A stretch of DNA of 64,000 nucleotides, from assembly GCF_024502345.1 (NCBI RefSeq), contig NZ_JALDNN010000001.1; one strand, 5' to 3'. The position numbers and the translations under genes are program-made. Below the pieces are notes generated by a model. The model worked only from the letters and a program-made list of their open reading frames with translations, ran no database searches and was not told where the DNA came from. Positions 3,685-52,506 of this stretch are shown piece by piece. The DNA comes from Escherichia coli (GTDB lineage: Bacteria > Pseudomonadota > Gammaproteobacteria > Enterobacterales > Enterobacteriaceae). Numbering within the stretch: the first letter of the stretch is position 1; every line of letters starts with the position of its first letter.

Positions 3685-3989
3685 TTATACTCGTCATACT
3701 TCAAGTTGCATTTACTGCGACTGCGTTCGTTCACCCCAGTCACTTACTTATGTAAGCTCCTGGCGATTCACTCGCTTGTCGCCTTCCTGCAACTCGAATT
3801 ATTTAGAGTATATAAATATAAAAATCAGGAAATGGCAGACGAATCCAGGGCAAGAAAAAAAGAATTAATCCTGGAAAGGTCTGCAAAGAGTCATTGATAA
3901 AGGATTTGTCATGATTTACCTCCTTGCAGTTTGTGGAATAAGAAAACGCGCACATACCAAGCGGGCGTTATTTTCATTGCAAGCTGGAT

Positions 3990-5494: not shown

Positions 5495-5508
5495 TGCTCA
5501 CCTCTCAA

Positions 5509-5528
5509 CACTGGTAAAGTATACAGTG
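5509..5528. promoter_or_regulatory. LexA (SOS) box upstream of dinB
   Basis: CACTGGTAAAGTATACAGTG, i.e. CTGT-N8-ACAG on the reverse strand, 15 bp upstream of the dinB start. Confidence 0.8.
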
Positions 5529-5564
5529 ATTTCAGGGTTTGAGAAATGCGTAAAGATTCAGCAT

Positions 5565-21246: not shown

Positions 21247-22303
21247 GGCTTTGTTGAATAAATCGAACTTTTGCTGAGTTGAAGGATCAGATCACGTATC
21301 TTCCCGACAACGCAGACCGTTCCGTGGCAAAGCAAAAGTTCAAAATCACCAACTGGCCCACCTACAATAAAGCCCTCATCAACCGTGGCTCCATAACTTT
21401 CTGGCTGGATGATGAAGCTATTCAGGCCTGGTATGAGTCAGCAACACCTTCTTCACGAGGCAGACCTCAGCGCTATTCTGACCTTGCCATCACGACTGTG
21501 CTGGTCATTAAACGCGTATTCAGGCTGACCCTGCGCGCTGCGCAGGGCTTTATTGATTCCATTTTTTCTCTGATGAACGTTCCGCTACGCTGCCCGGATT
21601 ACAGCTGTGTCAGCAGGCGGGCAAAGTCGGTTAATGTCAGTTTCAAAACGCCCACCCGGGGTGAAATCGCACACCTGGTAATTGATTCCACCGGGCTGAA
21701 GGTCTTCGGTGAAGGCGAGTGGAAAGTCAAAAAGCATGGCCAGGAACGCCGCCGTATCTGGCGTAAGCTGCATCTCGCCGTTGACAGTAAAACACATGAA
21801 ATCATCTGCGCTGACCTGTCGCTGAACAACGTTACGGACTCAGAGGCCTTCCCCGGGTTAATCCGGCAAACCCACCGGAAAATCAGGTCAGCCGCCGCCG
21901 ATGGCGCTTACGATACCCGGCTATGTCACGATGAACTGCGGCGTAAGAAAATCAGCGCGCTTATCCCTCCCCGAAAAGGTGCGGGTTACTGGCCCGGTGA
22001 ATATGCAGACCGTAACCGTGCAGTGGCTAATCAGCGAATGACCGGGAGTAATGCGCGGTGGAAATGGACAACAGATTACAACCGTCGCTCGATAGCGGAA
22101 ACGGCGATGTACCGGGTAAAACAGCTGTTCGGGGGTTCACTGACACTGCGTGACTACGATGGTCAGGTTGCAGAGGCTATGGCCCTGGTACGAGCGCTGA
22201 ACAAAATGACGAAAGCAGGTATGCCTGAAAGCGTGCGTATTGCCTGAAAACACAACCCGCTACGGGGGAGACTTACCCGAAATCTGATTTATTCAACAAA
22301 GCC
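21247..22303 (+). mobile_element. IS903-like insertion sequence (IS5 family), 1057 bp
   Basis: Terminal inverted repeats GGCTTTGTTGAATAAATC at both ends; perfect 9-bp target duplication ATCCATTTC at 21238-21246 and 22304-22312. Confidence 0.9.
21279..22247 (+). CDS. IS903-family transposase
   Basis: ORF ...AKQKFKITNWPTYNKALINRGSITFWLDDEAIQAWYES...; true start may be a few codons downstream of the track ATG. Confidence 0.9.
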   Translation: MKDQITYLPDNADRSVAKQKFKITNWPTYNKALINRGSITFWLDDEAIQAWYESATPSSRGRPQRYSDLAITTVLVIKRVFRLTLRAAQGFIDSIFSLMNVPLRCPDYSCVSRRAKSVNVSFKTPTRGEIAHLVIDSTGLKVFGEGEWKVKKHGQERRRIWRKLHLAVDSKTHEIICADLSLNNVTDSEAFPGLIRQTHRKIRSAAADGAYDTRLCHDELRRKKISALIPPRKGAGYWPGEYADRNRAVANQRMTGSNARWKWTTDYNRRSIAETAMYRVKQLFGGSLTLRDYDGQVAEAMALVRALNKMTKAGMPESVRIA

Positions 22304-22659: not shown

Positions 22660-23202
22660 TTATTTTGCTGGACATGTTGCAGGTTCCTTCATCTCGCGGG
22701 GTTCTTTGATAGGATAATTCGGTGTGCCATAGCCCTCGCAGACGGTTGTCACTTTAATCTGATTACACGGCAGAAAATGAACGGTCAGGCCACAACGTTC
22801 AGCGCCGTATTCCGGGATGTCAACAATTACTTTATATTTTTGATAATTTGCAGCATGTTTAGCATAAGCATCTTCTTCATAGCCAAAACCTTCTTTTTTC
22901 ATTGCAATAGGTTCAAGGGGGTTCGGGTCTACTTCCCACTCGATCCGGGCTTTTAATCCAGAATGCCACTTCTTTGGTAACATTATGCAGCAATATCCAC
23001 CGCCCAAACCATGGACCCGATAACCATTTACGGTGAACCAATTAATACTGATACCTTTAATATGATTTATTGCCCGGAGATCACCAGCAGTATAATCGTC
23101 GTAATTAGCTGCTGAGCAACCCGAAATCACCATCAAAATTAACACCAGACAGCCTTTAACTACTTTTGTTATATTCATTCCATTTCTTATTTTGCTGGAC
23201 AT
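22660..23202 (-). CDS. Lipoprotein next to the Tle1 effector gene (possible Tli-type immunity protein)
   Basis: 180-aa ORF with lipobox LILMVISGCSA; sits immediately upstream of the Tle1 fragment; the immunity role is inferred from position only. Confidence 0.5.
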   Translation of the reverse strand: MSSKIRNGMNITKVVKGCLVLILMVISGCSAANYDDYTAGDLRAINHIKGISINWFTVNGYRVHGLGGGYCCIMLPKKWHSGLKARIEWEVDPNPLEPIAMKKEGFGYEEDAYAKHAANYQKYKVIVDIPEYGAERCGLTVHFLPCNQIKVTTVCEGYGTPNYPIKEPREMKEPATCPAK

Positions 23203-26299: not shown

Positions 26300-26762
26300 C
26301 GCGCTCGCGCAGCAGCCAGTAAGTCACCCCGAGCGCCAGCGTAGCACCTGCGAGCGCGGCGATCTTGCCGGGGCTCGCCTCGGGGTCGAGGATCACGAAC
26401 TTGCGCGCCAGCGCGATCAGGCCGATGAGGATCACCGTCTTGACCTGGATGATGCTGTCCCGACGCAGCGCCACGCGCACGATGGAATGCTTGAATTCCA
26501 TGGCGATGAGCAGCGTCATGATCATGGCGAACACGGTCTGGAAGACCTTGTGATCAAGCGGATTGAACGCGTCGAGGATCAGCAGCGTGAAGACAATGGA
26601 CATGAGCTGGAGCAGCGACACCACGATGATCACGGCGATCACCGCAGACAGCACGAGCGCGATGACCTGCTCGAAGCGCTCGTAGAACGTCATCACGGCC
26701 CATTGGGCGCGAAAAGTTTTCGTCAGCGTAGGTTGCTTTTCATTCATCGCCATTTCCCTCAA
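26259..26762 (-). CDS. psiE: PsiE-family inner-membrane protein (phosphate-starvation-inducible)
   Basis: 167-aa multi-pass membrane ORF with a PsiE-like hydrophobic pattern. Confidence 0.75.
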   Translation of the reverse strand: MREMAMNEKQPTLTKTFRAQWAVMTFYERFEQVIALVLSAVIAVIIVVSLLQLMSIVFTLLILDAFNPLDHKVFQTVFAMIMTLLIAMEFKHSIVRVALRRDSIIQVKTVILIGLIALARKFVILDPEASPGKIAALAGATLALGVTYWLLRERDDRTAGERSDDQS

Positions 26763-27610
26763 TTTACATTGGCAACCATAACTTGGTTGCGCCCTTGTCT
26801 TTTTGCCTGGTAGAGCGCGCTGTCCGCCTGCTGCATCACCTGCTCGGAAGAGTTTAAGCGGACGTCGAGGGGAGCCACCCCCATGCTGGCGCTATAGCTG
26901 ATCGACACCTCTCCACACACCAGCGCTGTCGCCGCAACGTCCTGACGAAATCGCTCCGCCCATACTTGGGCGTCTTCTATCGATGCCGCTTCCAACAACA
27001 CAGCGAATTCCTCCCCCCCCCCAATCCGTGCAGCCATGTCGGTTGCGCGAACATGTTCCCTCAACCGTGAAGCAAAGTGCTTGAGCACCTCATCGCCGCA
27101 TCCGTGCCCATAGGTATCATTGATGCGCTTGAAGTGATCGATATCGCAGAGCACAAGTGCTGCTTGTATCTCCGGGCTGCGTTTGAGGCGCGCCCATTCC
27201 AGCTGTAATCGTTCGTTAAAAGCCCGCCGGTTCGACAAGCCGGTCAAGGGGTCGGTGATCGCCATGCGCAGCAACCGCTGCTCCATTTCCTTGCGAGAAG
27301 AGATGTCGAGCAGAGTGCCCACCATCAATTGCCTGCCCGTGTCACCCAGCCAACGACCGCGATCCAGCACCCAAATCCAAACGCCGGATCGATGACGAAC
27401 GCGGTACTCGCACTCCAATCGCTCCGACGGATTTTCTTGGTAAGCGCGCACCTTTGCCAGAACGACCGGTAAATCCTCCGGATGAATACGCGCTTGCCAT
27501 GCGGCATGGGTGGCGCCAATCTCCTCGTCGGAGGTCAAGCCGAACATCGCCAGACTGCGGGCAGAAAGCCTGAAGCTGTCGGTGGCAAGATCCCACTCCC
27601 AGAATCCCAA
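26759..27610 (-). CDS. PAS-GGDEF protein, putative diguanylate cyclase
   Basis: 283-aa ORF with GGDEF-domain signatures (RIGGGEEF active-site motif, DHFKRIND) after an N-terminal PAS-like region. Confidence 0.75.
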   Translation of the reverse strand: MGFWEWDLATDSFRLSARSLAMFGLTSDEEIGATHAAWQARIHPEDLPVVLAKVRAYQENPSERLECEYRVRHRSGVWIWVLDRGRWLGDTGRQLMVGTLLDISSRKEMEQRLLRMAITDPLTGLSNRRAFNERLQLEWARLKRSPEIQAALVLCDIDHFKRINDTYGHGCGDEVLKHFASRLREHVRATDMAARIGGGEEFAVLLEAASIEDAQVWAERFRQDVAATALVCGEVSISYSASMGVAPLDVRLNSSEQVMQQADSALYQAKRQGRNQVMVANVN

Positions 27611-27779
27611 CTCTGCGCCTTCCAGGGCGATGGCGATCCGTTCGTTGTCGTCGATTTTCGCTTGTTGGCGATGCTTCAGCTCGTCACGCCTGTGGCGATT
27701 GGTACGAGCAAAACGCCATAACGCAACCCCATGCCAACATTGGCAAGTAGCGACACCATCAGCCAGATGGTCGGCCCGT

Positions 27780-29498
27780 TCATGGTCTATCCCCGCCTGA
27801 CTGACTGAGTGCCTGCCGTAATTCCTCGATCCGGTGGTCGACTTGGTCGGCGTTGATGCCCAACATCAACAGTACCTGCTCGGCCAGTCCCAGTCCCGCA
27901 GCCAGGTACAACGGGTACAGTCTGACATTGGGCAGATTACGCAAAAGCTGGGCATCCGTTACGCGCTCAGTGGCCACCACCACGGACAAGCTCAGGCGGC
28001 GGTCGAGAACCGCCTGAGCGATACGCAGGGCCGTCTGCGGACGGGCAAACGTCAGCACCACCAGGCGGGCATGGGCCAATCCGGCGGCGGCCAGGGTGTC
28101 GAGCCGACTGGCATCGCCATACGACACCGGCGCCCCCATAGCACGCCCCGCTTCGACCCGTTGGCGGTCCGATTCCAGCAGCAAATGCGGTATGCCTGCC
28201 AGGCGCAGCGTTCGGCTCAGCAGCAGCCCGACGTCATCCGCCCCACAGATGATCACATGGTCGCGCAACGACCGCGCCCGCTCGGCGACTTCGCCTTCTT
28301 CGGCCTGCGGTGGCTGACCGAGTGCGCCCGAGCGGCTGAAAGCCCGCGCCCATCGGTCATGGTGTCGGATCAGGAGCGGTGCCAACCCCATGCTCAACAC
28401 CAGCGCCACCAGCATCGGTTGCACCATGGTGGCGGCGATCAGGTGCTGCTGCATGACCATGCCCAGGAGCAGCAGCGCAAACTCGCCGCCATGACCCAGC
28501 ACGATGCCTGCGCGCCAGGCGTCGAGCGCCGACAGGCGGGTTGCGCGCAGCGCCAGAAAGTTCAGCCCCATCTTGAGAGGCACCAAGGCCAACAGCCAAC
28601 CCAGTACCGCCAGCGGTGCGGCCACGATCTGCGCGGTGTCCAGCTGCAGGCCAATGGTCACGAAGAACAGGCCCGACAGCACATCACGAAAGGGCTTGAG
28701 GTGGCTTTCCATGTGGTGCCGGAAGTCGCTCTCGCCCAGGACCATGCCGGCGAGAAAGGCCCCCAGGGCGGCGGATACGCCGACGGCGTGTGCAGCAGCG
28801 GCTGCCGCCACGACCACGCACAAGGAGACCAGCACGAAGGATTCTTCGTGGCCCTGCCGCGCCACCCAGCCCAGCAGGCCATGCAACAGACGACGCGAGG
28901 CAACCGCCGCTGCCGCGAACAACACCAGCACGCCCAACACTTCGAGCAGCACGCTCTCGATCTTCGGCGAGTCGCCGCGCGCCCAGATCGCCAGCAGGGC
29001 CAGCAGGGGCACGCTGGCCAGGTCCTGAAAGACCAGCACGGCGATGGCACTGCGGCCGTGGCGGGTGGTGAGCTCGCCTTGGTCGGCCAGCTGTCGGCTG
29101 ACCAGCGCCGTGGACGACATGGCCGCTGCGGCGCCGAGCAGTGCAGCGCTCTGAGCTGGCTGACCCAACCCGATCAGCACCAGGGTCAGTGGCGCGGCCA
29201 CGACGACCATCTGCAAGCTGCCGGACGCCAGTACGGTCTTGCGAGTGAGCCAGAAGTGCCCCAGCGAGAATTCCAGTCCGACCATGAACAGCAGCAGGGC
29301 CACACCCAGTTCGGATATGAAAGTCAACGCCTCTCCCGGCGCGATCACACCGCTGACCGAGGGGCCCAGCAAGGCGCCGACGGCGAGGTAACCCAGCAAG
29401 GCGGGTACTCTGAACGCCGCCGTCGCCACCACCGAGAGGCTGCACGCCGCCAGCAGGATCAGGGTAGTGCCGAGCAAATCCTGCGGATTCCACGCCAT
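27780..29498 (-). CDS. kefB: KefB-like cation/proton antiporter with C-terminal TrkA-N domain; first five codons derive from the IS21-family end
   Basis: 572-aa ORF with multiple TM helices and a Rossmann-like VIICGADDVG; start ATGGCGTGGAATCCGCAG lies inside the IS terminal repeat plus target duplication. Confidence 0.8.
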   Translation of the reverse strand: MAWNPQDLLGTTLILLAACSLSVVATAAFRVPALLGYLAVGALLGPSVSGVIAPGEALTFISELGVALLLFMVGLEFSLGHFWLTRKTVLASGSLQMVVVAAPLTLVLIGLGQPAQSAALLGAAAAMSSTALVSRQLADQGELTTRHGRSAIAVLVFQDLASVPLLALLAIWARGDSPKIESVLLEVLGVLVLFAAAAVASRRLLHGLLGWVARQGHEESFVLVSLCVVVAAAAAAHAVGVSAALGAFLAGMVLGESDFRHHMESHLKPFRDVLSGLFFVTIGLQLDTAQIVAAPLAVLGWLLALVPLKMGLNFLALRATRLSALDAWRAGIVLGHGGEFALLLLGMVMQQHLIAATMVQPMLVALVLSMGLAPLLIRHHDRWARAFSRSGALGQPPQAEEGEVAERARSLRDHVIICGADDVGLLLSRTLRLAGIPHLLLESDRQRVEAGRAMGAPVSYGDASRLDTLAAAGLAHARLVVLTFARPQTALRIAQAVLDRRLSLSVVVATERVTDAQLLRNLPNVRLYPLYLAAGLGLAEQVLLMLGINADQVDHRIEELRQALSQSGGDRP

Positions 29499-29586
29499 TC
29501 GGACACTCAGCCCACGCTGATCCGGACACCTGTTCCACGGCCATTCGGACAGGCAGTCGGAGCGCAGCGACGCAGGGGTTGCATTG

Positions 29587-30342
29587 TTAGTCTGAGGTGC
29601 CCGGTGTCGTCAATTTCTTCACCCGCTTTCTCATCGATTCGCCCTTGAGGTTGATCCGATAAGCGTTGTGCACCAGGCGGTCGAGGATGGCATCGGCCAG
29701 GGTTGGATCGCCGATCAGTTCGTGCCAGTTGTCCACGGGCATTTGGCTGGTCACGAGGGTCGAGCGCTGGCCGTAGCGGTCGTCCAGTAGCTCCAGCATG
29801 TCGCGGCGCTGTTCGGCGGTGAACGGCGCCAGGCCCCAGTCGTCGAGGATCAGCAGGTCGGTCTTGGCGTAGCTGCTCATCAGCTTGGCGAAGCGCCCGT
29901 CGCCGTGGGCTAGGCCCAACTCTTCCAACAGGCGCGGCAAGCGCAGGTAACGCACGCTGTAGCCCTCTCGGCAGGCCTGGTGTGCCAGGGCGCAGGCCAG
30001 CCAGGTTTTACCCACGCCAGTCGGACCGTTGATGATCAGGTTGAGTCCGTCGCGCAGCCACTGGCCGCTACCCAGTTGCAGGATCAAGCCCTTGTCCAGC
30101 CCGCGCGGGGCACGGTAGTCGATGTCTTCGAGGCAGGCGCTGTGCTTGAGCCGGGCCTGGCGCAGGCGGCTGCTGAGGCGCTTGTCGTCGCGTTCGGTCA
30201 GTTCGCGGTCGACCAGCAGGCCGAGGCGTTCCACGAAGCTCAAGCTGTCGATGTCCGGGGTTTTCAGTTGCTCGGCGAGTGCCTTGAGCATGCCGGTCAG
30301 GCGCAGGGTCTGGAGCTTGTCCAGGGTCGGATGGGGCAGCAT
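29587..30342 (-). CDS. istB: IS21-family helper ATPase IstB
   Basis: Start MLPHPTLDKLQTLRL... (cat at 30340-30342); Walker [12 protein letters not shown]. Confidence 0.85.
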   Translation of the reverse strand: MLPHPTLDKLQTLRLTGMLKALAEQLKTPDIDSLSFVERLGLLVDRELTERDDKRLSSRLRQARLKHSACLEDIDYRAPRGLDKGLILQLGSGQWLRDGLNLIINGPTGVGKTWLACALAHQACREGYSVRYLRLPRLLEELGLAHGDGRFAKLMSSYAKTDLLILDDWGLAPFTAEQRRDMLELLDDRYGQRSTLVTSQMPVDNWHELIGDPTLADAILDRLVHNAYRINLKGESMRKRVKKLTTPGTSD

Positions 30343-30359
30343 GGTGGGATTCCTTGTGT

Positions 30360-31874
30360 TTAGTGGTAGTAGCCGGGGCCGCGCAGGTTGGCGTGGTCGT
30401 CCGGCAGCAGGGGCAGGTGCTGCTGGGCCAGCGGCAGATTTTCCAGCCCCTGGCGCAGGATCGATTCGAGGCTCTTGTAGCTGCACGCACCGAGGCTGAG
30501 GGCGCGACGGCAGGCCAACTCCAAGCACACTTCGCCATGGGTCTTGCCCAGGCGCAGGATGCCCAGGCAGGCCCGGTAGCCTTGGGTTGGGTGGATGCGC
30601 CGTTCGAGGATGTGGCTGATCACGCCGGCCGTGTTCGGCCCGGTCTGCTCAGCCCAGCGGATCAGCCGTTGTGGCGTCCACTCGGCGTGCTCGCGATGGC
30701 TCTTGGGCATGTGCTCGGCCTGTGTGCTGTGCCGGCCCTTGTGCGGTGAGCGAAGGTGGCTGGCCACCCGCTGATTGGCGTGGAAGCACTCCACCGTGCG
30801 CGCTGTCAGGCGTACTTCCAGTTGTTTCTTCACCAGTTGGTACGGCACCGAGTAGTAGTGCCCATCGACCTCGACGTGGTAGTCGATGTGCACCCGCGCC
30901 TTCTTCCACTCGGCATAGACGTAGGGCTGCTCCGGCAGTGGGCGCAGCGCTGGACGATCCAGGGCTTCGAAGGCCGAGTGCCGGGAGCCCGGCAGCTTGC
31001 GAAACGGTCGTCGGTTGAGCCGCTCCAGCAATAAGGCGATGGCGCTGTTGAGTTCGTCCAGGGAGAAGAACTGGCGGTTCCTCAGCGCGGCGAGGATCCA
31101 GCGCTCGACCACCTGCACGCCGACCTCGGCCTTAGCCTTGTCGCGCGGCTTACGCGCCCGCGCCGGCACCACCGCCACGCCATAGTGCTCGGCCAGATCG
31201 CGGTAGCTCGGGTTGATGTCCGGCTCGTAGCGATGGCTCTTACTCACCGCGCTTCGCAGGTTGTCCGGCACCACGATCTCCGGCACACCGCCGAGAAAGG
31301 AGAAGCAGCGGGCATGTGAGCCCAGCCAGTCAGGTAACTGCTGCGACCAGGTGGCTTCGGCGAAGGTGTAGCTGGATGCACCAAGCACCGCGACGAACAC
31401 CTGCGCCTGGCGGATCTCGCCGCTGTGGCGGTCGATCACCGGCACCGTCTGCCCGGCGTAGTCGACGAACAACTTCTCGCCAACGCGATGTTCCTGGCGC
31501 ATCACCACGTCCAGCTTGCCCTGCCAGGCTCGGTAGTGCTCGCAGAACCAGCTGTACTGAAAGCCTTTCGGCTGGCTCAGGCGATACTCCTGCCAGAGCA
31601 GCGCCAAGGTCACGCCCGGCCGGCGTAGCTCGGCGTGGATCATGGCCCAATCGGGCAGCGGTCGTTGCTCGGAGGGTACCGCCGCCGGTGGCGGGAACAG
31701 CTGCTGCTCCAACTCCGCATCGGACAACGAACAGGGCCAACTGAGGCCGCTGGCGGCAAAGCGACAGAGGTAATCACCGGCACTGCTGTGGCCTATGCCC
31801 AGACTGCGGGAGATCTTACGGACAGACAGCCCGCAATCGAACTTGAGGCGCAACACCTCACGGATTTTACGCAT
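30360..31874 (-). CDS. istA: IS21-family transposase IstA
   Basis: Start MRKIREVLRLKFDCGLSVRKISRSLG... (cat at 31872-31874); HTH then DDE region; the track ORF extends upstream into trx. Confidence 0.85.
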   Translation of the reverse strand: MRKIREVLRLKFDCGLSVRKISRSLGIGHSSAGDYLCRFAASGLSWPCSLSDAELEQQLFPPPAAVPSEQRPLPDWAMIHAELRRPGVTLALLWQEYRLSQPKGFQYSWFCEHYRAWQGKLDVVMRQEHRVGEKLFVDYAGQTVPVIDRHSGEIRQAQVFVAVLGASSYTFAEATWSQQLPDWLGSHARCFSFLGGVPEIVVPDNLRSAVSKSHRYEPDINPSYRDLAEHYGVAVVPARARKPRDKAKAEVGVQVVERWILAALRNRQFFSLDELNSAIALLLERLNRRPFRKLPGSRHSAFEALDRPALRPLPEQPYVYAEWKKARVHIDYHVEVDGHYYSVPYQLVKKQLEVRLTARTVECFHANQRVASHLRSPHKGRHSTQAEHMPKSHREHAEWTPQRLIRWAEQTGPNTAGVISHILERRIHPTQGYRACLGILRLGKTHGEVCLELACRRALSLGACSYKSLESILRQGLENLPLAQQHLPLLPDDHANLRGPGYYH

Positions 31875-32046
31875 GGACAAACGCTCCACGACGACCTCTC
31901 TGCTTCGAAAAAGAGGTCGATGGTAGTGAATAAATCCTGCGTAGCTGCCTGCCTGGAAAGTGTCCGGATGGCCGTGGAATCGGTGTCCGGATGCTCGTGG
32001 AATAAGTGTCCGGATCAGCGTGGAATCCGCACAAATCCTGCATCGG

Positions 32047-32487
32047 TCAGCGTCCCACCTGTGCAGAGGCCCAGCGCACGATGTCCTGCGAGCCCATGGC
32101 GCCTGCCTGGCGGGCGATCTCACGTCCGCCCTGGAACAGGGCGAGCGTCGGAATGCTGCGGATACCGAACTGCGCGGCCAGGTGGGGCTCAGCCTCGGTG
32201 TTCACCTTTGCCAGCCTGATCCCGGGTTCGAGCTGGCGCGCGGCTTGTTGAAACTGCGGCGCCATCATCTTGCACGGCCCGCACCAGGGCGCCCAGAAAT
32301 CGACCAGCAGCGGCAGATCGCTGCGCTCCACGTGGCGCGAGAACGTCGCCGTCGTCAACTCGATGGGCTCGCCGGTGAACAAGGGCTGCTGGCAGCGGCC
32401 GCAGTTGGAACGATCCGCGAGCTTGGCGGCCGGCACGCTGTTGATGGACTGGCAATGTGGGCAGACGATGTGGAGTTCATTTTTCAT
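32047..32487 (-). CDS. Thioredoxin with N-terminal zinc-finger extension (Trx2-like)
   Basis: 146-aa ORF with CPHC...CGRC N-terminal cysteines and active site WAPWCGPCK. Confidence 0.85.
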   Translation of the reverse strand: MKNELHIVCPHCQSINSVPAAKLADRSNCGRCQQPLFTGEPIELTTATFSRHVERSDLPLLVDFWAPWCGPCKMMAPQFQQAARQLEPGIRLAKVNTEAEPHLAAQFGIRSIPTLALFQGGREIARQAGAMGSQDIVRWASAQVGR

Positions 32488-33628
32488 GGTTCGCTTGCTT
32501 GGACTGCGGTGAGGTTGCCTCGCTTCGGATCACCGACATCGCCGACCAATTTACGCCTTTGATCCAATCGTTCCCGTCTTCGCTCACGCCGGCATCTTCC
32601 ACGTGAGCCGCAATGAAGGCTTCGGCTTGAATGAGCCCCGCTCTGACAGCATCTATCTTATTAGGCATCCGCAGGATTTCAGCAGCGCAGCCTGCATCCA
32701 GCCCATCCACCCGGATAAGCAGAAAAATGCGGCGCCACAAGTGCGGCATACCCTTCATCAGGTCGAATGCAAATGCGAATTCGCTCGATCTGTCACCAAT
32801 TTCCTCCTGTTCGGCGATTGCTGCTGGGTCGGGAAGCCGACTATCAGCCATGACGTCGGCCAGGCTGAGTGCGTCATCAGGCTGATAAAACTCGTAGAAC
32901 TCTTCCTCTACCATGGCCTCCGCCATGTCCTGCGCATCCGCTTCGACCGGCGCATCCAGCGAAACGGCCTCGCCATATTGCCGGCTGTTTGCCACTTCGC
33001 GATCAATGACGGCAAAAAGATGCTTCAAAAGATCGAGGTAAGCGGCATTTTCTTCTGGAACGGATGTCCATACCGATTCAGCCAGAGCAATCGCTTCGTC
33101 CACCACGTCGTGCAGCGTCGGATAATCGCGAGGCAAATCACCGGCGGCATGCAGATAAGCCAACTCGCGTTGCGCAACGGCCTCAACCTTCGGCAGCAGC
33201 GTCTCGATTATCCCGCGTGCTTGCTGGACGACAGAGGCAGGTTGAGTGTCGATCCGCGCCTTGAGCTCGCGCAAGCGTTCACGACGCGCCTTACGCTTGA
33301 TTTGATCCTGAGCGCTCAGCCGATCAAAGTGCTTCTTGGCCTGCCGGAACAACGCCTGCGCTAGCATGTGCGCGAGAGGCGTCAGATCGTTATGCGATGC
33401 AGTGACGCTGACGATTTTTTTGCCCGGCAAGTGCATGTGGCCACTGGCCGTTAAGCGAGATCCTTTTTTCGCGCGTTCGAGGACGATTTGAAGACGTACC
33501 GAATCTTCGGAGCGCTTTTCGATCAGCGGCTTGAGAGCGGGTTCAACCGCTTTTTCTACAGACATTCGCCAAGGTTCATGAAATTCTTTTTCGACGAGTC
33601 GATAGCTATATTGTATACGCATGCTCAA
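32477..33628 (-). CDS. Hypothetical protein of the heat-resistance island
   Basis: 383-aa ORF MSMRIQYSYRLVEKEF...; acidic C-terminal half; no family recognised with confidence. Confidence 0.55.
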   Translation of the reverse strand: MSMRIQYSYRLVEKEFHEPWRMSVEKAVEPALKPLIEKRSEDSVRLQIVLERAKKGSRLTASGHMHLPGKKIVSVTASHNDLTPLAHMLAQALFRQAKKHFDRLSAQDQIKRKARRERLRELKARIDTQPASVVQQARGIIETLLPKVEAVAQRELAYLHAAGDLPRDYPTLHDVVDEAIALAESVWTSVPEENAAYLDLLKHLFAVIDREVANSRQYGEAVSLDAPVEADAQDMAEAMVEEEFYEFYQPDDALSLADVMADSRLPDPAAIAEQEEIGDRSSEFAFAFDLMKGMPHLWRRIFLLIRVDGLDAGCAAEILRMPNKIDAVRAGLIQAEAFIAAHVEDAGVSEDGNDWIKGVNWSAMSVIRSEATSPQSKQANHEK

Positions 33629-33720
33629 GTCCTTTAGGGTTGTCCGCCCAGGTGAGTGGACCCGGGTGATTGGATATGTTGATTTTCAAAGATGATCTTA
33701 CGGTTTGGTTTTTCACGCCC

Positions 33721-34332
33721 TTACCTCTGACGCGCTTTGCGCAAACGCCAACTAAGAAGCAAAAGAGTCATACCGAAGATCGCAGCATGGAAACCCAATA
33801 CCCAGCCCGCGGCCAGAAATGATTCGATCGGGCGGGTAAAAAACATCCATAGGATGATCGCACCGAGGAGCACGGAAAGCAGCCCGCTGAGGGCAAGCCA
33901 GATCTCGCCCTTGATTTCCCGGCGCAGACGAACGGCGGCGGATATCTCCAGCATACCGGTGAAAATTGCCCAGAATGCCACGCTTACCCACAAGAAATAG
34001 GCCAACGCCAAAGTGGCAGCCAGAGGGGCAACTACCACAACGACACCGGTGAGTATGCCGACGATGCCGCTGAACAACAGCCAGCCCCAGCGCTGCTTTT
34101 GCCGCATTTGCCGCACCGCTGCAACCAGGTTGAACGCACCATTGACCAAAGAAAATGCGCCGAACACTATCGTCATGGCGAACAAAGCCGAGTGTGGCAT
34201 CCAGAATGCGAGGACTGCAAAAATCAACGCGAATATGCCGCGCAGCGCAAACAACCACCAATTTTGGGTCAGTGAACACACGGCATCGGCAGGGTTATCC
34301 GCATTCGAATCGGCGATGGTATTTGCATTCAT
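33721..34332 (-). CDS. hdeD: HdeD-like acid-resistance membrane protein
   Basis: 203-aa ORF with six hydrophobic segments typical of the HdeD family. Confidence 0.7.
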   Translation of the reverse strand: MNANTIADSNADNPADAVCSLTQNWWLFALRGIFALIFAVLAFWMPHSALFAMTIVFGAFSLVNGAFNLVAAVRQMRQKQRWGWLLFSGIVGILTGVVVVVAPLAATLALAYFLWVSVAFWAIFTGMLEISAAVRLRREIKGEIWLALSGLLSVLLGAIILWMFFTRPIESFLAAGWVLGFHAAIFGMTLLLLSWRLRKARQR

Positions 34333-44659: not shown

Positions 44660-46497
<1,838 letters not shown>

Positions 46498-46505
<8 letters not shown>

Positions 46506-48000
46506 TCCATCTTCCTATCAATCGAATGAACGCAGTGGTCAGTGGTGCCACCCTGCTTTTTTCCAATCCACAACGCTTTTCCAGCTCCCAGCGCCTAGAC
46601 GTTATGCCTGTCTGTACATCCTTCAGCATCGCTGCAGTCAGGCGACGGATCTGATACTCGCCGACGGACTCGGCATAGCGATCCAGGAAGGTGCAGCAAA
46701 GAGGCAATTGATCGAGACGGTGCTCGACTGATGCCCGATGGGGTAGCTGCTGCAGGAACCAGTTGCGACTCCTGCGCGGAAGGCCCAGGTCTTCTTCGCT
46801 ACCTCTACCAATCCGGATCAGCAGGCGCACCAACCTTATGTCACGCGCTCGCCAGTCGATGTGGCTGTTGTTGCCCTGTCGGCGCTGCCTGACCTGGTTC
46901 GCAACCATCAGCCAGTGTCGGTCATGACGATAGAGCCAGGCGTAACATGCCCCTGCTCCGTCTTGCCTGGCTGCCTTGGCTCCACCGTGATTAGCCAGTG
47001 CTTGCAGCCAAATGGCTCGGTACTGCTGCTTTTGCTCAAACTCAGCAGGGAGCAGCTGCACTGACCGCTCGGAGGCAAGGTCGACCTGGCGAGTCTTCGC
47101 CTCGCTGATCAGCTCGCCAGCATGCTGGCCAGGGCGCAGGCTGGTCCAGACGATCAGATGCTGCAGCGCACTGAATCCCTTGCGATGCTTCCTGAACATC
47201 GCCAACAGCCAAGGTGGAGGCTCTCCGGATGTCAGCAGACCGTTCGCAGCAAGCCAATCCCTTTGATGGGATGCCAGGATCTTCTCCCAGATGACTTCAG
47301 CCCTGACCTGCCGGCCTCGCCTGGCGCCGCACTCTGTAGCCAGGTACCGGTACAGGTTGGTCCAGCGTCCGTAGCCAGGCGATTGCACCTCTTCGAGCGC
47401 CAGCAGCTGCATAGCAGCCTTGGCGAGCCTGATAGCCTCTTCGCCCACGGGACTCACGCGAAGATCACGGGGCAGAAACAGTGGAGAGGCTGTATGAAAC
47501 TCGTGCCGCTGCGCTCGACGGAACGGGATAGGTGAGTTCAGGAGCTGACAGCCATGCTCGGGACAGGCATCTATCCCTTGAATCTGCCAGCTGCGCCGCC
47601 AGTAGGGTTCACCGTAGCGCGCAGCCATATCTTCAAAGCAGATCGGGCAGTAACGCAGCCAATCGGGCCACTTGACCAAGGCCGTCGAGGCCCCAGACAG
47701 ACCAATCGTCGGCCGGTCGGGAGCAAGCATGGCCTGAAAAAGATCGGTACGGCGCTCCGGCGGAATGAAAGGGGCATAGAGCGGGAACAGCGTGTGATTC
47801 AGGATCATGCCTTCCGCATCCAAGCCCGTGTTGTTCGCCAACGCAGTCAGGTGTGTGGGCAGATCGGTGATCGCGGCAACCTTGCTGTCACCGAAAAGCA
47901 TGTGCAGCAAGGTCTTGTGGCTGCCTATCCCCAGATGTACCCGGCACCGGGCAATACCGCTGTAAAGCAGTTCGTCCGGGTAGAGCCTGGGGAAGTACAT
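46498..48000 (-). CDS. tnsD: Tn7 TnsD/TniQ-like target-selection protein
   Basis: 500-aa ORF MYFPRLYPDELLYSGIARC...; zinc-finger-like RYCPICF...CPEHGC; FRKHRKGFSALQHLIVW and YAWLYRHDRHWL blocks. Confidence 0.8.
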
Positions 48001-48001
48001 G

Positions 48002-49612
48002 TCAGCTCGCTCTCAGCAGAGGCCGTAGATCGAGGATCAAGCCAGCCTGCTTGAATCTGTCATAGGCCTCGCTTTCAGGCCCATCGGCATAACGTCGGCG
48101 CAGATCCTCCTCGGATAGGCACCCCCACTCCGTCCGCTTAACTCTGGAAATGCCGGGCCTCTTGGGAGCGTCCTGCGCGAGGTAGGCCGTGGCCTTGTGA
48201 ATCAGGGCCGCCAGCGGGATGTCCGGATTCTCCGCCAACAATTCATCGGCCATGGGAATGGCGATGTCCCTCGGGATTTCCATACCTTCGAGCAGGGCGG
48301 CCAACCGCTTTGCCTTGTCATCAGCCGGAGGGGCCGGTGGTTTAGGTTGGGGGACGCTATCCAGAGAGCGAGTCAGGGTCAGCAACCGTCCCTCGATCTC
48401 TGGCATCAGCAGGTCGTCATATTTGGCGATCAGCTCGGGCCTACCGCTCCGCAAGGCCGCCAGCATCGGATGGACCGGTTTGAACTCGTCCTCGAAAACC
48501 CTGCGCAGCAACAGCGGCTTAATGCACTCGACACCTGTCACTATCGCCCGGATCTGCGCCAGCGCGAACAGCTTGATGACGATGTCCATGACCCCTTGGG
48601 TGAGGTCGTACATCGTAGCCTCCAGTTCATCATCCAGCGGCGCCGCATTTCGCAGCCACTGATACTTCCAAAGCCGCTTCAACAGACGCTTCCAATGCTC
48701 GTCCCGAGGCAACCTATCCCAGCGGATGCTGCCCAACCCGGAGACCCGCCGAGCAGCCCGGAACGTGCGCTGGAAGAACTTGCTGGCCCGGTGGGTGCCG
48801 ACCTGAATGATCGGAACACCGATGGTGTTCACCAGCGACACGAAGAAATTGTGCATTTTTTCGGCACCACCGGAGCGTGCCTCGTTGAGGTTCTGAACCT
48901 CGTCGATGATCAGCACTCCGAGCGTGTGCAGATTGGCCAGCTGGCACATGGATGCCAGCAGACGTTTGGTACCCAGCTTCTTGCGTCCGTGGCTACGGCT
49001 GTAGTGGGTACCCAGGATCTTGTCTACTTCGTTGAAGAAGCTCAGGCACAGCTCATCCAAGTCACCGTCAATTGGGCAGTCGATCTTCAGGTAGACCAGT
49101 TGGGTGATGTCGTAATCAGGGTGATGGAGAGCTTGGGGGTACATGCCCAGAATCCGCTCCAGCGTGCGCGTCTTGCCGCAACCGGAGCAGCCGAACAGCG
49201 ACAGGCTGTTGGCCGTAGAGGAGACACTCTGGTACACCGCCGCATCCAGATCCTCCTCCTCGACACGGCGATAGCCATTCTGCAGGTGCGCATACCAGGC
49301 ACCGCTGGCCGGATTCCGACCGATGTACCCTTGACGGATCATCAGGCTGATCTTGCTCTCCAGCTCCAAGTGATGGCTCAGCGGCTGGAAGAAGCCGTGC
49401 AACAGGCGGGCAATCGCATGTGCCCTGAGCCGACCATCCAGAAGCGCCTCCTGCGGCTCGAAACCGGGAAGCTGCTGCAATAGATCGACCACCTCCTGCA
49501 GATCAGGAATCGGAGGCAATGCGCTGATGAGCGGATTGTCCTGATACTCGGGAAGCTGCTGCTCCTGGTAACGCGCCAGGGGAATGACTCCGCGCTGGAA
49601 TTCTTCAGTCAT
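48002..49612 (-). CDS. tnsC: Tn7 TnsC-like AAA+ transposition regulator
   Basis: 536-aa ORF with Walker A GCSGCGKT and Walker B LIIDEVQNL. Confidence 0.85.
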   Translation of the reverse strand: MTEEFQRGVIPLARYQEQQLPEYQDNPLISALPPIPDLQEVVDLLQQLPGFEPQEALLDGRLRAHAIARLLHGFFQPLSHHLELESKISLMIRQGYIGRNPASGAWYAHLQNGYRRVEEEDLDAAVYQSVSSTANSLSLFGCSGCGKTRTLERILGMYPQALHHPDYDITQLVYLKIDCPIDGDLDELCLSFFNEVDKILGTHYSRSHGRKKLGTKRLLASMCQLANLHTLGVLIIDEVQNLNEARSGGAEKMHNFFVSLVNTIGVPIIQVGTHRASKFFQRTFRAARRVSGLGSIRWDRLPRDEHWKRLLKRLWKYQWLRNAAPLDDELEATMYDLTQGVMDIVIKLFALAQIRAIVTGVECIKPLLLRRVFEDEFKPVHPMLAALRSGRPELIAKYDDLLMPEIEGRLLTLTRSLDSVPQPKPPAPPADDKAKRLAALLEGMEIPRDIAIPMADELLAENPDIPLAALIHKATAYLAQDAPKRPGISRVKRTEWGCLSEEDLRRRYADGPESEAYDRFKQAGLILDLRPLLRAS

Positions 49613-51692
49613 CCTCTTCCTCCTTGAATATCAGGTCACTGAGATCTGGGAAGGCATAATCTTCCTGCTTCTCGCCCCGCAGTGGGATCACCTCGGCTGG
49701 CTTTTCCTGCTGTGCTTTATCCGGTTTGAATGCTGTTTTCTGGCGTTCCTGGCGCTTTTCCTGCTGCTTGTTCTCGCGGATCTGGGTTCCCAGATCCTTC
49801 GTGGTCATACCCGTTTTGAGCGGACTGGCATCCTCTGCCTGGGCAACGATGGACTCGATCTGCTTCAGAAGATTGCCTCTCTCTACCAAAGCTTCCGCCG
49901 CCGCGTTGGTATCGCTACGCCGTTCCTCTCTGGACAGCAGCCAGACATCCCAGAAGGTCATCCCCCTGAAGCGTCGACTGCGGTCGGCAAGATCGCAAAC
50001 CCAGTAGTCCTTGAGACTATTGGACGGCCGCAGGTAGATGTGGTCGGCGCTACGCGGATCGTATGCGACCGTTACCCCTGTCGGCCGGCGCCCCTGGCCT
50101 CGGTGAAACCAACCCTCCCTGATTGCTTCCTGGCAGGTGTAGAAGCAGCCGAACAGTCTGATTCCCAGCTCCGAAACCGTGGCCGACTCATGGGGCAAGA
50201 GATTTATCCGCACCAGCTCCTCGGGCGCAGTACGTAACCGGCCGGTCAAGTTGGCCAAGCCCCAGTTCCACAGCATGACCGGGATGGCTGGCAGATCGCC
50301 CGGCATACCAGAGGTTCTGTCGTATTTGCTCAAGGTATGAAAGTTGTTGTGGTAGAGGATGCCGGCAATGATGATCTGGGTGAACTCGGGCAAGGTCAGA
50401 CTGGCATCAAGTCTGTAGTCGTGGCCACCCCGCTTCCGGCTGGTGGTGTCCTCGACCACACCGCTGGCATAGGGCTTGAAACGCTCCTGCACCGTCCGGA
50501 AATAACGCTCGACGATCCCCTTGGCATCTCCTCGCCTGGCCGGTGCATTCTCGATGCGAACGCCGAAGGCTTGGGAAAATGCTTCCACCTTGGTGCCATT
50601 CAGTTCGCCCTTATCGGCCAGCACCACATCCGGCAAGCCTTTGACCGGCCAGTCGCTGGCATCGATCTCCACGCTATACTGGCGGCAATACTCAACCTTG
50701 TCGGCGACCGTGTTGGCCAATGCCACCATGGCACTGACCCAGGAAGGTCCCTCGAATCCGACGTACATACCAACGACCATGCGGCTGAACACGTCGATCA
50801 CCATGTAAACGACAGGCCTGCCGACGATAAGGCTGCGATCATGTTCTGAAACCAGATAGATATCGGCGATGGTGGCATCGATCTGGTAGCGGTATCCTGG
50901 CCCCAGTGCCTCGGTCGTCGATGTACTGCTGAGCGGTCGGAAGTCCTTGGCAAAATCCACTGCGGACACCCTGCATGGCAAGGTGTCGGTGAAGTGATAT
51001 TCGCGCCCATAGAAGTAACGGAACTGCCCCAATGTAGGCAGTTCGGAGGTCGGCAGCTCCGTCAGAACAGCACGGAGCAGATTCAGCCCGGCGGCGTAGG
51101 CATCAGGAATGGACGGATGTTTTTCCTTGAGCAAACGTTCCTCGATGACCCGGCGAAAAATGCGCTCGATGTCCGGCGTGACATTGCTCCCTTTCCCCTC
51201 CATCACCACTCTGGGCCTGCCCAGCTTGGCCTGGTTCGGCTTTCTGCGCTTGCCACGGGCGCCCGAGTTGACATAGTCCGGCAAGAGGGCATTCCTGCAC
51301 ATGCCTCGCTGCCAGTAGCGCCTCAGTAACCTATACACCGTCTGATTGGTGACACCATGGCGCTCCATGATGCCTCTGACAATGAGCCCTCTGGGGCGCC
51401 GCACGAAAAGCTGGGGGTTGTGCACAAAATCCGCCAGCATTCCCCAAGCTTCATCACGCTTCTGCTGATCAAGGGAACCTTCCTCAACCTCCCGTAGGAC
51501 TGTTTCCTCGAAGGGATCGGCAATGCTCTCCAGCTCCCGCTCCATGATCAGACGCTCCAGCTCTACAATCGATATCGGTTCGGGCAACGCCGTGTCCGAA
51601 TCGATATCGATCCAGATTGCCTGCTCGGTACCGGACCAAAGCAGGCGCTTTCGCAGTTCCCCCATCCGGAACACCTGATTAACGGGCAACAC
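49605..51692 (-). CDS. tnsB: Tn7 TnsB-like DDE transposase
   Basis: 695-aa ORF with YQIDATIADIYLV, VLADKGE and GIVERYFRT blocks matching the Tn7 TnsB catalytic region. Confidence 0.9.
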   Translation of the reverse strand: MLPVNQVFRMGELRKRLLWSGTEQAIWIDIDSDTALPEPISIVELERLIMERELESIADPFEETVLREVEEGSLDQQKRDEAWGMLADFVHNPQLFVRRPRGLIVRGIMERHGVTNQTVYRLLRRYWQRGMCRNALLPDYVNSGARGKRRKPNQAKLGRPRVVMEGKGSNVTPDIERIFRRVIEERLLKEKHPSIPDAYAAGLNLLRAVLTELPTSELPTLGQFRYFYGREYHFTDTLPCRVSAVDFAKDFRPLSSTSTTEALGPGYRYQIDATIADIYLVSEHDRSLIVGRPVVYMVIDVFSRMVVGMYVGFEGPSWVSAMVALANTVADKVEYCRQYSVEIDASDWPVKGLPDVVLADKGELNGTKVEAFSQAFGVRIENAPARRGDAKGIVERYFRTVQERFKPYASGVVEDTTSRKRGGHDYRLDASLTLPEFTQIIIAGILYHNNFHTLSKYDRTSGMPGDLPAIPVMLWNWGLANLTGRLRTAPEELVRINLLPHESATVSELGIRLFGCFYTCQEAIREGWFHRGQGRRPTGVTVAYDPRSADHIYLRPSNSLKDYWVCDLADRSRRFRGMTFWDVWLLSREERRSDTNAAAEALVERGNLLKQIESIVAQAEDASPLKTGMTTKDLGTQIRENKQQEKRQERQKTAFKPDKAQQEKPAEVIPLRGEKQEDYAFPDLSDLIFKEEEDD

Positions 51693-52506
51693 TGCTCAGC
51701 TCCTGATGCATTTGATGAGAGTTGGCAACCAGGTCTTTCGGCTTCAGCTCCCGGTAAGGAGTGTCAAGATCGAAAAGGAAACAGTGCCGGGCCAGCAACT
51801 GGCGTAGCCAATAGAGCGCCTGACCGGCCTCCAGCTGGCCGGAGGTATCCAGTCCTTGGGCAATAGCGGTCAGCTTCCGGTCTGGGTGACGCTGAAACTC
51901 GAGCAGAAACAGCTGCTGGTAATGGGCGAGATCGTCCTGAGCGATGTCGCCTTCAGCATGGGCAGGATAGAGCCATTGGATATTGGCAAATGCCACCTTG
52001 GATACCTCGCGCTCCGTAACGATGACCCAGGGAATACCTTTTTCCTGCCAGTAGCGCCTTTCAAGCTCAAGCCTCTCGATAACTTCAGGCTTCTGCAGGT
52101 CGGTACTGTACTTGGCCTGAATCGCGATGCTCGGGCGCTGAGGATCTTCGAAATCCACCAGAAAGTCGCTGGTCAGTACCTGCGGGGTACCCTTGTAACA
52201 ACCGTGGGGCAGGCCAAGCTCCTCGGCGATGCGCACCGTATCTTCGACCCGCATCGGAAACTGTTCACGGATATCGGTGACATGGGGAGACCGATCCAAG
52301 GTCAGGAAGATGGCCAGTTCAAGATCGGATAGAAGATGGTGTAAACGCCGGGTCTTGCTGCCAGGCAGGCGGTGGGAGCGACCCAGCGAGGACACGTCCC
52401 TTGTGTAGATGAACGGCTTGTAGTCTGATCCCTGGCCTTGACCACGCCCGTCCTTGAGCCTTCTATCGATCTGGGCCTGGGTCAGCCCCTTGAATGTTCC
52501 AGACAT
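51679..52506 (-). CDS. tnsA: Tn7 TnsA-like endonuclease
   Basis: 275-aa ORF MSGTFKGLTQAQIDRRLKDGRGQGQGSDYKPF...HHLLSDLELAIFL...TSDFLVDF...AIQAKYS; sits just inside the right transposon end. Confidence 0.9.
   Translation of the reverse strand: MSGTFKGLTQAQIDRRLKDGRGQGQGSDYKPFIYTRDVSSLGRSHRLPGSKTRRLHHLLSDLELAIFLTLDRSPHVTDIREQFPMRVEDTVRIAEELGLPHGCYKGTPQVLTSDFLVDFEDPQRPSIAIQAKYSTDLQKPEVIERLELERRYWQEKGIPWVIVTEREVSKVAFANIQWLYPAHAEGDIAQDDLAHYQQLFLLEFQRHPDRKLTAIAQGLDTSGQLEAGQALYWLRQLLARHCFLFDLDTPYRELKPKDLVANSHQMHQELSSVAR

Follow-up and report, generated by a model that had tools for sequence, protein, structure and literature searches.

The 64,000-nt stretch of Escherichia coli DNA analyzed here (the window) carries an insertion sequence (IS) where the thioredoxin gene trx meets the antiporter gene kefB, which raises the question of whether the antiporter can still be made and, if so, from which start codon and which transcript. 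Four complete E. coli genomes (G3/10, C 236-04A, ABWA45, and LR536430) are 99.6 to 99.95% identical to the window across the G3/10-aligned region, 23617-48000, and this match to the annotated G3/10 region identifies the locus as tLST/LHR, a heat- and chlorine-tolerance island whose identity went unrecognized in the first reading of the window. The tLST matters in practice, since it enables E. coli, Klebsiella, and Pseudomonas to survive heat and chlorine sanitation. We took its core set to be sHsp20, clpK, sHsp-GI, yfdX1/2 (pscA/B), hdeD-GI, orf11, trx-GI, kefB-GI, psiE, an htpX-like gene, and degP-GI, which are precisely the genes annotated in the matching G3/10 region; profile searches were also run on the island's own trx and kefB. 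trx-GI (32047..32487, minus strand) encodes a TrxC-type thioredoxin with a zinc ribbon (NF008229, 154 bits against a cutoff of 125), and orf11 (32477..33628, minus strand) overlaps the start of trx by 11 nt as the upstream member of a coupled orf11-trx-kefB unit. The kefB product carries Na_H_Exchanger and TrkA_N domains and is a CPA2-type antiporter; it scored below the cutoffs of the NCBIfam KefB/KefC equivalog models (276 to 311 bits against 752 to 804) and of the CPA2 subfamily model TIGR00932 (202.6 against 238.3). "KefB-GI" is the literature's name for it, and the work on its function in chlorine tolerance used the tLST1 homologue. Of the tLST genes, it alone has been shown to be specific to chlorine tolerance: removing kefB lowered resistance to chlorine but not heat resistance.

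The IS occupies 29482..32031 on the minus strand (2,550 bp), is intact, and had been assigned to the IS21 family in the initial annotation, an assignment that holds. istA (30360..31874, minus strand) encodes an intact DDE transposase of 504 amino acids (NF033546, 311.6 bits against a cutoff of 160), the length found in relatives, and a gene identical to it carries the Pfam domains rve and Mu-transpos_C_2. Directly downstream, 17 nt from the istA stop, istB (29587..30342, minus strand) encodes an intact AAA+ helper ATPase of 251 amino acids (NF038214, 279 bits against a cutoff of 200). The ends have the form 5'-TG...CA-3' with a 14-nt, 100% complementary terminal inverted repeat and three subterminal direct repeats each, spaced by 23 bp; this spacing is characteristic of the family, in which at least two repeats are required (PMC10122671). 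The IRL end (31958..32031, minus strand) faces trx and begins with the terminal TG, its three repeats being of the IstA type. The IRR end (29482..29552, minus strand) faces kefB and contains an outward-reading ATG (29498..29496), followed by GCG TGG AAT CCG and the terminal CA.

These ends identify the element as ISPa85-like. The published 45-nt ISPa85 IRR (PMC8411920) matches the window copy exactly, and the published 45-nt IRL (PMC8411920) matches E. coli G3/10 exactly; the window copy matches the first 17 nt of the latter and then has a 46-bp deletion. Alignment to G3/10 showed that these missing 46 bp leave three IRL repeats where relatives have five. The common form of the element is 2,596 bp, and every other tLST2c locus examined (tLST2c being the variant defined below) retains the 46 bp. 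Elements of the ISPa85/ISPpu7/ISPpu23 group, found on Pseudomonas plasmids and chromosomes, share with the window IS the lengths of istA (504 amino acids) and istB (251 amino acids), the ends TGCGGATTCCACGC...GCGTGGAATCCGCA, the 23-bp repeats, and target-site duplications of 7 to 8 bp, and identity to the closest plasmid copies is 95.9% across the whole element. The prototype IS21 of R68.45 likewise has istA-istB, terminal repeats spaced by 23 bp, a terminal CA, and a weak promoter when present in single copy, but its duplications are 4 to 5 bp, with 5 bp given in PMC10122671, rather than 7 bp.

Where exactly did the element land? A 7-bp flanking duplication, CAAATCC, had been proposed, and it is present at 29475..29481 and again at 32032..32038. 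On the plus strand, one junction reads GAG CAAATCC followed by TGCGGATTCCACGC, with the repeat from 29475, and the other reads GCGTGGAATCCGCA, CAAATCC, and TGCATCGGTCA, with the repeat at 32032-32038. The probability that 7 bp adjoining the two IS ends would match by chance is ~6e-5, and four relatives have duplications of 7 to 8 bp. The first copy corresponds to kefB nt 6 to 12 (GGATTTG on the coding strand), and the second remains attached to the orphaned native kefB start. The insertion point lies inside kefB, after nt 12, rather than between the genes, with nt 6 to 12 duplicated.

The empty site is proven by IS-free loci. A KefB protein search of genome contigs yielded 13 IS-free reference loci in genomes of diverse genera, and among the species representatives in that search we found empty sites only, with no further IS-bearing locus. 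All 13 read from the trx stop, TGA, through 3 nt to ATG CAG/GAA and on to TTG/CTG CTx, such that the protein starts MQ or ME. The native junction predicted in the initial annotation, in which ATGCAGGATTTG (MQDLLG) follows the trx stop after 3 nt, is thus borne out by these loci and by 12 E. coli records, in which two 200-nt flanks span 393 nt instead of 400, i.e., 400 minus the 7-bp duplication. In the Pseudomonas lundensis locus, positions 1-4009 correspond to window 36040-32032 and positions 4000-6376 to window 29484-27109; the 10-nt overlap of these alignments is the 7-bp duplication plus three coincidental nucleotides (TGC). The native MQDLLG start is also the one annotated by PGAP in the tLST2 reference and the one used by a published kefB deletion primer.

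With the IS in place, the open reading frame at 27780..29498 (minus strand) opens ATGGCGTGGAATCCGCAGGATTTG and encodes 572 amino acids (MAWNP+QDLLG...), of which residues 6 to 572 are identical to the native 568-aa protein. The full antiporter reading frame thus survives with M replaced by MAWNP. The new ATG lies 17 nt from the tip of the IS, reads outward, and is in frame with kefB; the terminal CA of the IS and the first duplicated G rebuild the Gln codon (native Gln-2). The proposed origin of MAWNP in the terminal repeat was confirmed by the published ISPa85 IRR and by the last 27 nt of the right end, which are identical in relatives that sit in unrelated contexts: at 103 unrelated insertion sites, copies of the ISPa85 group have the same ATG and four following codons. 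Conversely, an IS-free locus encoding MAWNP would place the IS boundary elsewhere; there was none among the 13 loci (0/13) or the 12 E. coli records. The orphaned native ATG (32043..32041) now opens a 58-codon frame across the IRL (31867..32043, minus strand) that stops at TAA (31869..31867), overlapping istA codons 2 to 3.

PGAP and a second gene caller agree on the IS ATG as the kefB start. Pairing of its leader with the anti-Shine-Dalgarno (anti-SD) sequence is irregular and amounts to -5.2 kcal/mol, versus -7.3 for the native leader. Starts farther downstream are all worse: the TTG at codon 8 has an AGGA merely 2 to 3 nt upstream, and the GTG at codons 23 to 24 would cut into the first hydrophobic segment. 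We also asked if the IRR ATG serves generally to rescue genes and rejected this as a general trend: across 103 distinct metagenomic insertion sites, reading frames of at least 200 codons numbered 5 in the ATG frame and 5 and 6 in the other frames.

The initial annotation had further proposed that kefB might now depend on a promoter reading outward from the IS. That proposal was not supported: a consensus scan of 27500-34000 revealed no sigma-70-like site; specifically, no site in this interval combined at least 9 of 12 matches with a 16- to 18-nt spacer. A relaxed scan returned a single poor candidate upstream of the IS ATG, TTGACG-N19-AACAAT (29583..29613, minus strand), which lies ~85 to 115 nt upstream of that codon and is conserved in relatives but has a spacer, 19 nt, that is too long. 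Precedent does lend some weight to a promoter in the kefB-side end that drives kefB and downstream genes: many IS ends carry promoters, and in the prototype IS21 the right terminal repeat contains a -35 box (PMC10122671). In IS21, however, this -35 box pairs with a -10 box in the IRL of an abutting tandem copy, and the promoter of a single copy is weak, with IstA binding occluding the ends (PMC10122671). The window has no tandem copy (a search returned only the two ends and one chance match with two mismatches), which disposes of a tandem-junction promoter, and our scans found no equivalent hybrid promoter able to serve the IS ATG. Moreover, an IS21-type -35 at the tip would place the transcription start downstream of that ATG. 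We therefore regard an outward promoter as improbable.

In well-known cases, such as ISEcp1 or ISAba1 upstream of bla genes and IS26-type -35 boxes, outward or hybrid promoters activate neighboring genes. There, a defined outward promoter boosts a gene that is intact and still begins at its own start. The window IS resembles these in lying immediately 5' of the gene and in being oriented such that transcription could run from the IS into the gene; unlike them, it removes the kefB start and ribosome site, supplies an ATG, and has no recognizable outward promoter.

The IS has the same orientation as trx and kefB and so lies in the direction of the operon. A scan of its minus strand found no convincing terminator, the one candidate, within istA, having a stem of 6 bp and a poor T-tail. 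Neither feature was noted in the initial annotation. Since the IS is co-oriented and lacks a convincing terminator, read-through from upstream is at least as likely as an outward promoter, and, judged from these features, it would be the likelier source of kefB transcript.

Taken together, these data favor, at a probability of roughly 80%, a joint reading in which an ISPa85 insertion, known as tLST2c, rescued kefB in frame, with transcription by read-through and weak translation from the IS ATG. ISPa85, a Pseudomonas-type IS21-family element, transposed into the tLST2 stress-tolerance island, inserting after nt 12 of kefB-GI in the orientation of the orf11-trx-kefB unit. The trx-GI stop lies 3 nt before the native kefB ATG; the two genes were formerly translationally coupled, and this coupling was presumably lost. 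Read-through would supply most of the kefB transcription, crossing the terminator-less IS both from the upstream tLST promoter(s) and from the weak istAB promoter. Translation would begin at the IS-supplied ATG behind a weak SD sequence and would probably be reduced. Chance, rather than a general property of the element, seems to account for the in-frame rescue, although selection may have retained this outcome. Several points weigh against this account: the poor SD sequence before the IS ATG; IstA binding to the terminal repeats, which could occlude that SD sequence; and the 2.5 kb of foreign coding sequence, which may be polar, e.g., through Rho, even without an intrinsic terminator.

The same points feed the main competing explanation, that the insertion is a knockout or strong knockdown, with KefB essentially unmade owing to polarity and lost coupling and the 572-aa frame being just the gene callers' pick. 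The irregular pairing of the leader at -5.2 kcal/mol, the loss of trx coupling, and the lack of a promoter in our scans all fit. The allele would then persist because kefB is unneeded for heat, consistent with the deletion phenotype being limited to chlorine, or because a second tLST supplies it. According to published passages on the variant, many tLST2c strains also carry a tLST1 with an intact kefB, so the tLST2c copy could be dispensable, and the repeated decay of a neighboring GGDEF gene in tLST2c loci indicates that this part of the island is under relaxed constraint. Against a knockout, kefB is intact in all IS-bearing loci seen. It is open in all contigs selected by the junction, including one with an in-frame 3-codon insertion; that set is small but was not picked by protein identity, whereas look-ups of the exact protein are biased toward intact copies. 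A kefB insertion would be co-oriented and in frame with a chance of ~1 in 6, and would fall within the first four codons less often still, and a co-oriented, in-frame, full-length outcome is what surviving function predicts. The IS also lacks a convincing terminator. Divergence since the insertion, 4 nt in 2.4 kb versus P. lundensis, is too small to show purifying selection. We consider a knockout unlikely, though a serious contender.

The insertion is real, ordinary, and already catalogued. In the passages of PMC12603250 that define tLST2c, its defining feature is ISPa85 between trx and kefB, with a lack of orfC and orfD and a duplication between kefB and orfE as further criteria; the window has ISPa85 in this position, and we assign it to tLST2c by the IS alone. 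Our findings refine this variant and do not describe a new kind of system. Within the tLST literature examined, the insertion appears in one sentence, in PMC12603250, and no paper treating IS21 together with kefB and the locus of heat resistance turned up in a literature search. The passages of PMC12603250 on the insertion describe it as intergenic and mention no 7-bp duplication, position in codons 2 to 4, or start-codon swap; relative to them, what is added is that the insertion lies inside kefB (nt 6 to 12 duplicated) and that the start codon is swapped.

Four complete E. coli genomes, nine further assemblies, and four to five metagenome contigs carry the same IS in this position, and the exact 572-aa MAWNP protein is encoded on 332 public contigs. 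The tLST2c allele passes on as a unit and has become widespread in Enterobacteriaceae. An assembly artifact, or a native MAWNP with a misassigned IS boundary, is accordingly close to inconceivable: the junctions recur in these genomes, assemblies, and metagenomes, all 13 IS-free loci start MQ or ME, and the IRR string is that of ISPa85. The one exception is the 46-bp IRL deletion, unique to the window, which could reflect tandem 23-bp repeats collapsed during assembly.

Should the insertion in tLST2c reduce or eliminate KefB, chlorine tolerance would vary among strains scored simply as tLST positive, and tLST2c should be told apart from tLST2 in genome-based risk calls. Should the IS-supplied ATG still yield KefB, the locus would show, in nature, how an IS end can rescue the gene that it disrupts. 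A bolder version, which we hold to be quite doubtful, is that the right-end ATG of the ISPa85 group and its weak ribosome site form a portable translation start, from which functional KefB-GI is made uncoupled from trx, as a selected rewiring (e.g., in the chlorinated-wastewater lineages ST635 and ST399) and not a tolerated lesion. The 46-bp IRL deletion could then couple transposase translation to the stress operon through the frame in which it places the orphaned kefB start, which ends on the istA start.

The first gene downstream of kefB, across a gap of 169 nt, encodes a PAS-GGDEF diguanylate cyclase (26759..27610, minus strand), and this gene has decayed repeatedly in tLST2c loci.

The trx-kefB junction in the window is interrupted by an ISPa85-like element of the IS21 family, and the genes concerned are all on the minus strand of the window. 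orf11 (33628..32477) overlaps trx (32487..32047) by 11 nt; downstream of trx come 3 nt and the bases ATGCAGGATTTG, followed by the 2550-bp element itself, whose extent (32031..29482, minus strand) was read from the sequence, and then by the kefB reading frame, which opens GGATTTGCTCGGC and continues as a 572-codon open reading frame (ORF) to 27780. The element begins with TGCGGATTCCACGC and finishes with GCGTGGAATCCGCA, a 14-nt perfect inverted repeat, and inside each end of this copy a unit of ~23 bp is present three times at a 23-nt spacing. It encodes IstA (504 amino acids [aa]; NF033546, 311.6 bits versus a cutoff of 160) and IstB (251 aa; NF038214, 279 bits versus a cutoff of 200) and is single copy within the 64-kb window. 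The heptamer CAAATCC directly flanks the element on both sides, at 29475-29481 and 32032-32038. Three more bases match beyond it, as the IS starts with TGC and the flank past the trx-side duplication also reads TGC; this extra match is a coincidence. A 10-mer, AAATCCTGCG (CGCAGGATTT on the coding strand), occurs at 29476-29485, 31932-31941, and 32033-32042. It arises where the duplication meets the kefB-side end of the IS (IRR), and a second occurrence, conserved in relatives, lies within the IS just interior to the repeats of the trx-side end (IRL). Because this junction 10-mer recurs inside the IS, the preinsertion target, GCAGGATTT, resembled internal IS sequence, a likeness that is probably due to chance (about 0.02 a posteriori).

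A protein scan with KefB, taking one genome per species, returned 15 loci, and the region upstream of kefB was readable in 13 of them. The junction reads CAGGTGGGACGCTGACCGATGCAGGATTTGCTCGGCACTACC in P. lundensis, P. saxonica, two Pantoea, and one Burkholderiaceae bacterium, which is the window sequence minus the IS and minus one copy of CAAATCC. More distant loci (70 to 80% protein identity; Rhodocyclaceae, Rubrivivax, Sphingopyxis, Pseudoxanthomonas, Marinobacter, Fontimonas, and Thermomonas) start kefB with MQDLL, MQGLL, MQNLL, or MEDLL, and most of them also keep the thioredoxin stop codon 3 nt before kefB. BLAST alignment of the IS-free P. lundensis locus with the window was split into two segments, 2.55 kb apart in the window and overlapping by 10 nt in P. 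lundensis. Two 200-nt query flanks spanned 393 nt rather than 400 nt in 12 complete E. coli records of the same island variant, i.e., 400 minus the 7-bp duplication. The empty site predicted in the initial annotation was therefore borne out by the IS-free junctions, the P. lundensis alignment, and the E. coli spans. In the tLST2 reference CP061749, the uninterrupted kefB is annotated by PGAP as 568 aa with a start 3 nt after trx-GI, and a published kefB-GI deletion primer ends with GGGACGCTGACCGATG. Together with the empty sites, this annotation and primer place the IS inside kefB, after nt 12, with kefB nt 6-12 duplicated.

Read outward, IRR, which lies next to kefB and downstream of istB, runs GAGTGTCCGA ATG GCG TGG AAT CCG CA/G GAT TTG, where the slash marks the end of the IS. 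Its 27 terminal nucleotides recur without a change in copies of the ISPpu7, ISPpu23, and ISPa85 types from four Pseudomonas plasmids; these copies sit in unrelated contexts with their own duplications of 7 to 8 bp. The same 27 nt are found at >100 distinct metagenome sites. In addition, the 45 window nucleotides that start at 29482 match the published ISPa85 IRR string exactly (PMC8411920). An MAWNP N terminus was found in none of the 13 readable IS-free kefB loci. Recurrence of the terminal nucleotides in relatives elsewhere, and the lack of MAWNP in IS-free loci, confirm the earlier proposal that MAWNP is IS sequence. The terminal CA of the IS and the first duplicated G rebuild the Gln-2 codon of kefB, so the protein is native KefB-GI in which MAWNP takes the place of M; from residue 6 to residue 572 it matches the P. 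lundensis protein at 100% identity.

The observation as a whole, that is, an IS at trx-kefB with a target duplication and an IS-encoded start, is confirmed from the sequence and the IS-free loci. This arrangement is a catalogued variant, tLST2c, of the well-studied heat- and chlorine-tolerance island tLST, and its origin is ordinary IS21-family transposition. The available part of the paper describing tLST2c (PMC12603250) assigns this variant to 6.3% of tLST-positive complete E. coli genomes and to 89 ST635 and 19 ST399 isolates; that part does not mention where exactly the IS inserted, that 7 bp were duplicated, or that the start codon was replaced, the last being a small detail worth one annotation line. 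The IS occupies the kefB site in 4 of 5,426 complete E. coli genomes, and no full-length copy was found elsewhere in those four. The exact 572-aa KefB protein is present on 332 contigs under the name "MULTISPECIES ... [Enterobacteriaceae]," the native 568-aa protein is present on 254 contigs, mostly Pseudomonas, and nine further assemblies have the order trx-istA-istB-kefB. These counts agree with a single insertion event that has been widely inherited. Because the IS group is overwhelmingly Pseudomonas (78 of 90 plasmid records), the insertion probably took place in a Pseudomonas-like host and predates the arrival of the island in Enterobacteriaceae.

The IS runs in the same direction as the orf11-trx-kefB unit. 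Through it the tight trx-kefB coupling (stop, 3 nt, ATG) is lost, and the new kefB ATG lies 88 nt downstream of the istB stop. The suggestion in the initial annotation that an IS-borne outward promoter might now serve kefB is not supported: a consensus scan of 27500-34000 found no sigma-70-like site on either strand, and a less strict search in the final 400 nt of the IS gave a sole candidate, TTGACG-N19-AACAAT (29613..29583). In prototype IS21, a −35 box in the right repeat pairs with a −10 in the abutting left end of a tandem copy; the promoter is weak in single copy, and the IS ends are masked by IstA binding (PMC10122671). An mRNA from a −35 at the very tip of the IS could not include the IS ATG. 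We consider it improbable that a dominant outward promoter in the IS drives kefB. A terminator search of the minus strand inside the IS found only a 6-bp stem, located in istA and followed by a poor T tail. Transcription of kefB would come mainly from read-through from upstream tLST promoters and the weak istAB promoter. The leader of the IS ATG pairs irregularly with the 16S 3′ end at −5.2 kcal/mol, versus −7.3 kcal/mol for the native leader, which in addition is coupled to trx. Translation would begin at the IS ATG and would probably be less efficient than that in tLST2. Alternative kefB starts downstream of the junction were worse than the IS ATG. With the weaker leader and the lost coupling, the insertion could amount to an effective kefB knockout, which we regard as less likely; we favor production of KefB at a useful level (probability of about 0.5 to 0.6). 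In published deletions, loss of kefB reduces chlorine tolerance without lowering heat tolerance, and thus chlorine tolerance is the phenotype at stake; the functional question raised is whether tLST2c still confers KefB-dependent chlorine tolerance. For published deletions of orf14, orf15, or degP, no effect on membrane-lipid oxidation was measured.

Among 103 distinct insertion sites with exactly the same IRR and at least 900 nt of flank, ORFs continuing from the junction for 200 codons or more were counted 5 times in the ATG frame versus 5 and 6 times in the other two, and no general tendency of IRR toward in-frame fusions was seen. kefB is open in all full-length cases in a set of contigs selected by the junction, independently of protein identity (572, 572, 572, and 575 aa). 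This is compatible with retained function, the sample being too small and too recent for proof. The 575-aa kefB, on the tLST2c-type metagenome contig OLNK01002532.1, has an in-frame 3-codon insertion near residue 171. On TARA_R100001244_G_scaffold24895_1, from positions 15-41, an ISPa85-type right end lies just 5′ of another gene, which keeps its own AAGGAGGAGG...GTG start, and the IS ATG frame is open for 538 codons; this is the sole other long in-frame case resembling a 5′-proximal insertion.

The IS copy in the window lacks 46 bp at IRL (31958-32031), lost between direct repeats GATTCCACGCTGA and corresponding to exactly two 23-bp IstA-type repeats, which leaves three. By contrast, five 23-bp IRL repeats and a 2596-bp IS were present in every other IS-bearing locus examined, namely, all 13 further tLST2c loci with a readable IRL (G3/10, a complete E. 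coli genome with the same IS at the same site; nine assemblies; and three metagenome contigs) and the four relatives on plasmids, as well as in the IRL published for ISPa85. The loss could reflect recombination between the repeats, or it could be an assembly collapse of tandem repeats. As IstA needs two complete repeats per end (PMC10122671), the window copy may have kept its mobility. The orphaned native kefB ATG, 3 nt past the trx stop, is still coupled to trx. A 58-codon ORF runs from it across IRL (31867-32043, minus strand) to a TAA that overlaps istA codons 2 and 3, whereas in the 2596-bp form the same ORF stops after 24 codons. Such an overlap could tie translation of istA to the stress operon.

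A Tn7-like element, with tnsABCDE-like ORFs at 52506..44883, carries tLST as cargo; the G3/10 annotation names TnsD and TnsE. The window is 99.6 to 99.95% identical to G3/10 over 24 kb. The annotated island order in G3/10 is Hsp20, clpK, a PLD-like gene, and truncated ftsH; hsp20-GI, yfdX1, a YfdX-family gene, hdeD, and a hypothetical gene; trx-GI, istA, istB, and a cation:proton antiporter; and GGDEF, psiE, htpX, and an S1C protease. The GC content of the foreign block is 57 to 67%, versus about 50% in the flanks, which are Escherichia chromosome (fadE, dinB, pepD, and a lateral-flagella remnant). The best match among 5,426 complete E. coli genomes shares only 97.5% identity with these flanks, and the host may be a divergent Escherichia lineage. 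Just past the degP end of the island, an IS5-family transposase gene (21279-22247, plus strand) and a Tli1a-family immunity gene (22660-23202, minus strand) occupy a 42%-GC segment between tLST and the chromosomal flank. The PAS-GGDEF diguanylate cyclase gene that follows kefB (26759-27610; 283 aa) is intact in the window and in G3/10. In five other tLST2c loci (L021, L023, L025, L026, and L027) this gene is variously broken, the lesions being an IS with a DDE_Tnp_1 transposase, a split into 210 and 80 aa, and a deletion.
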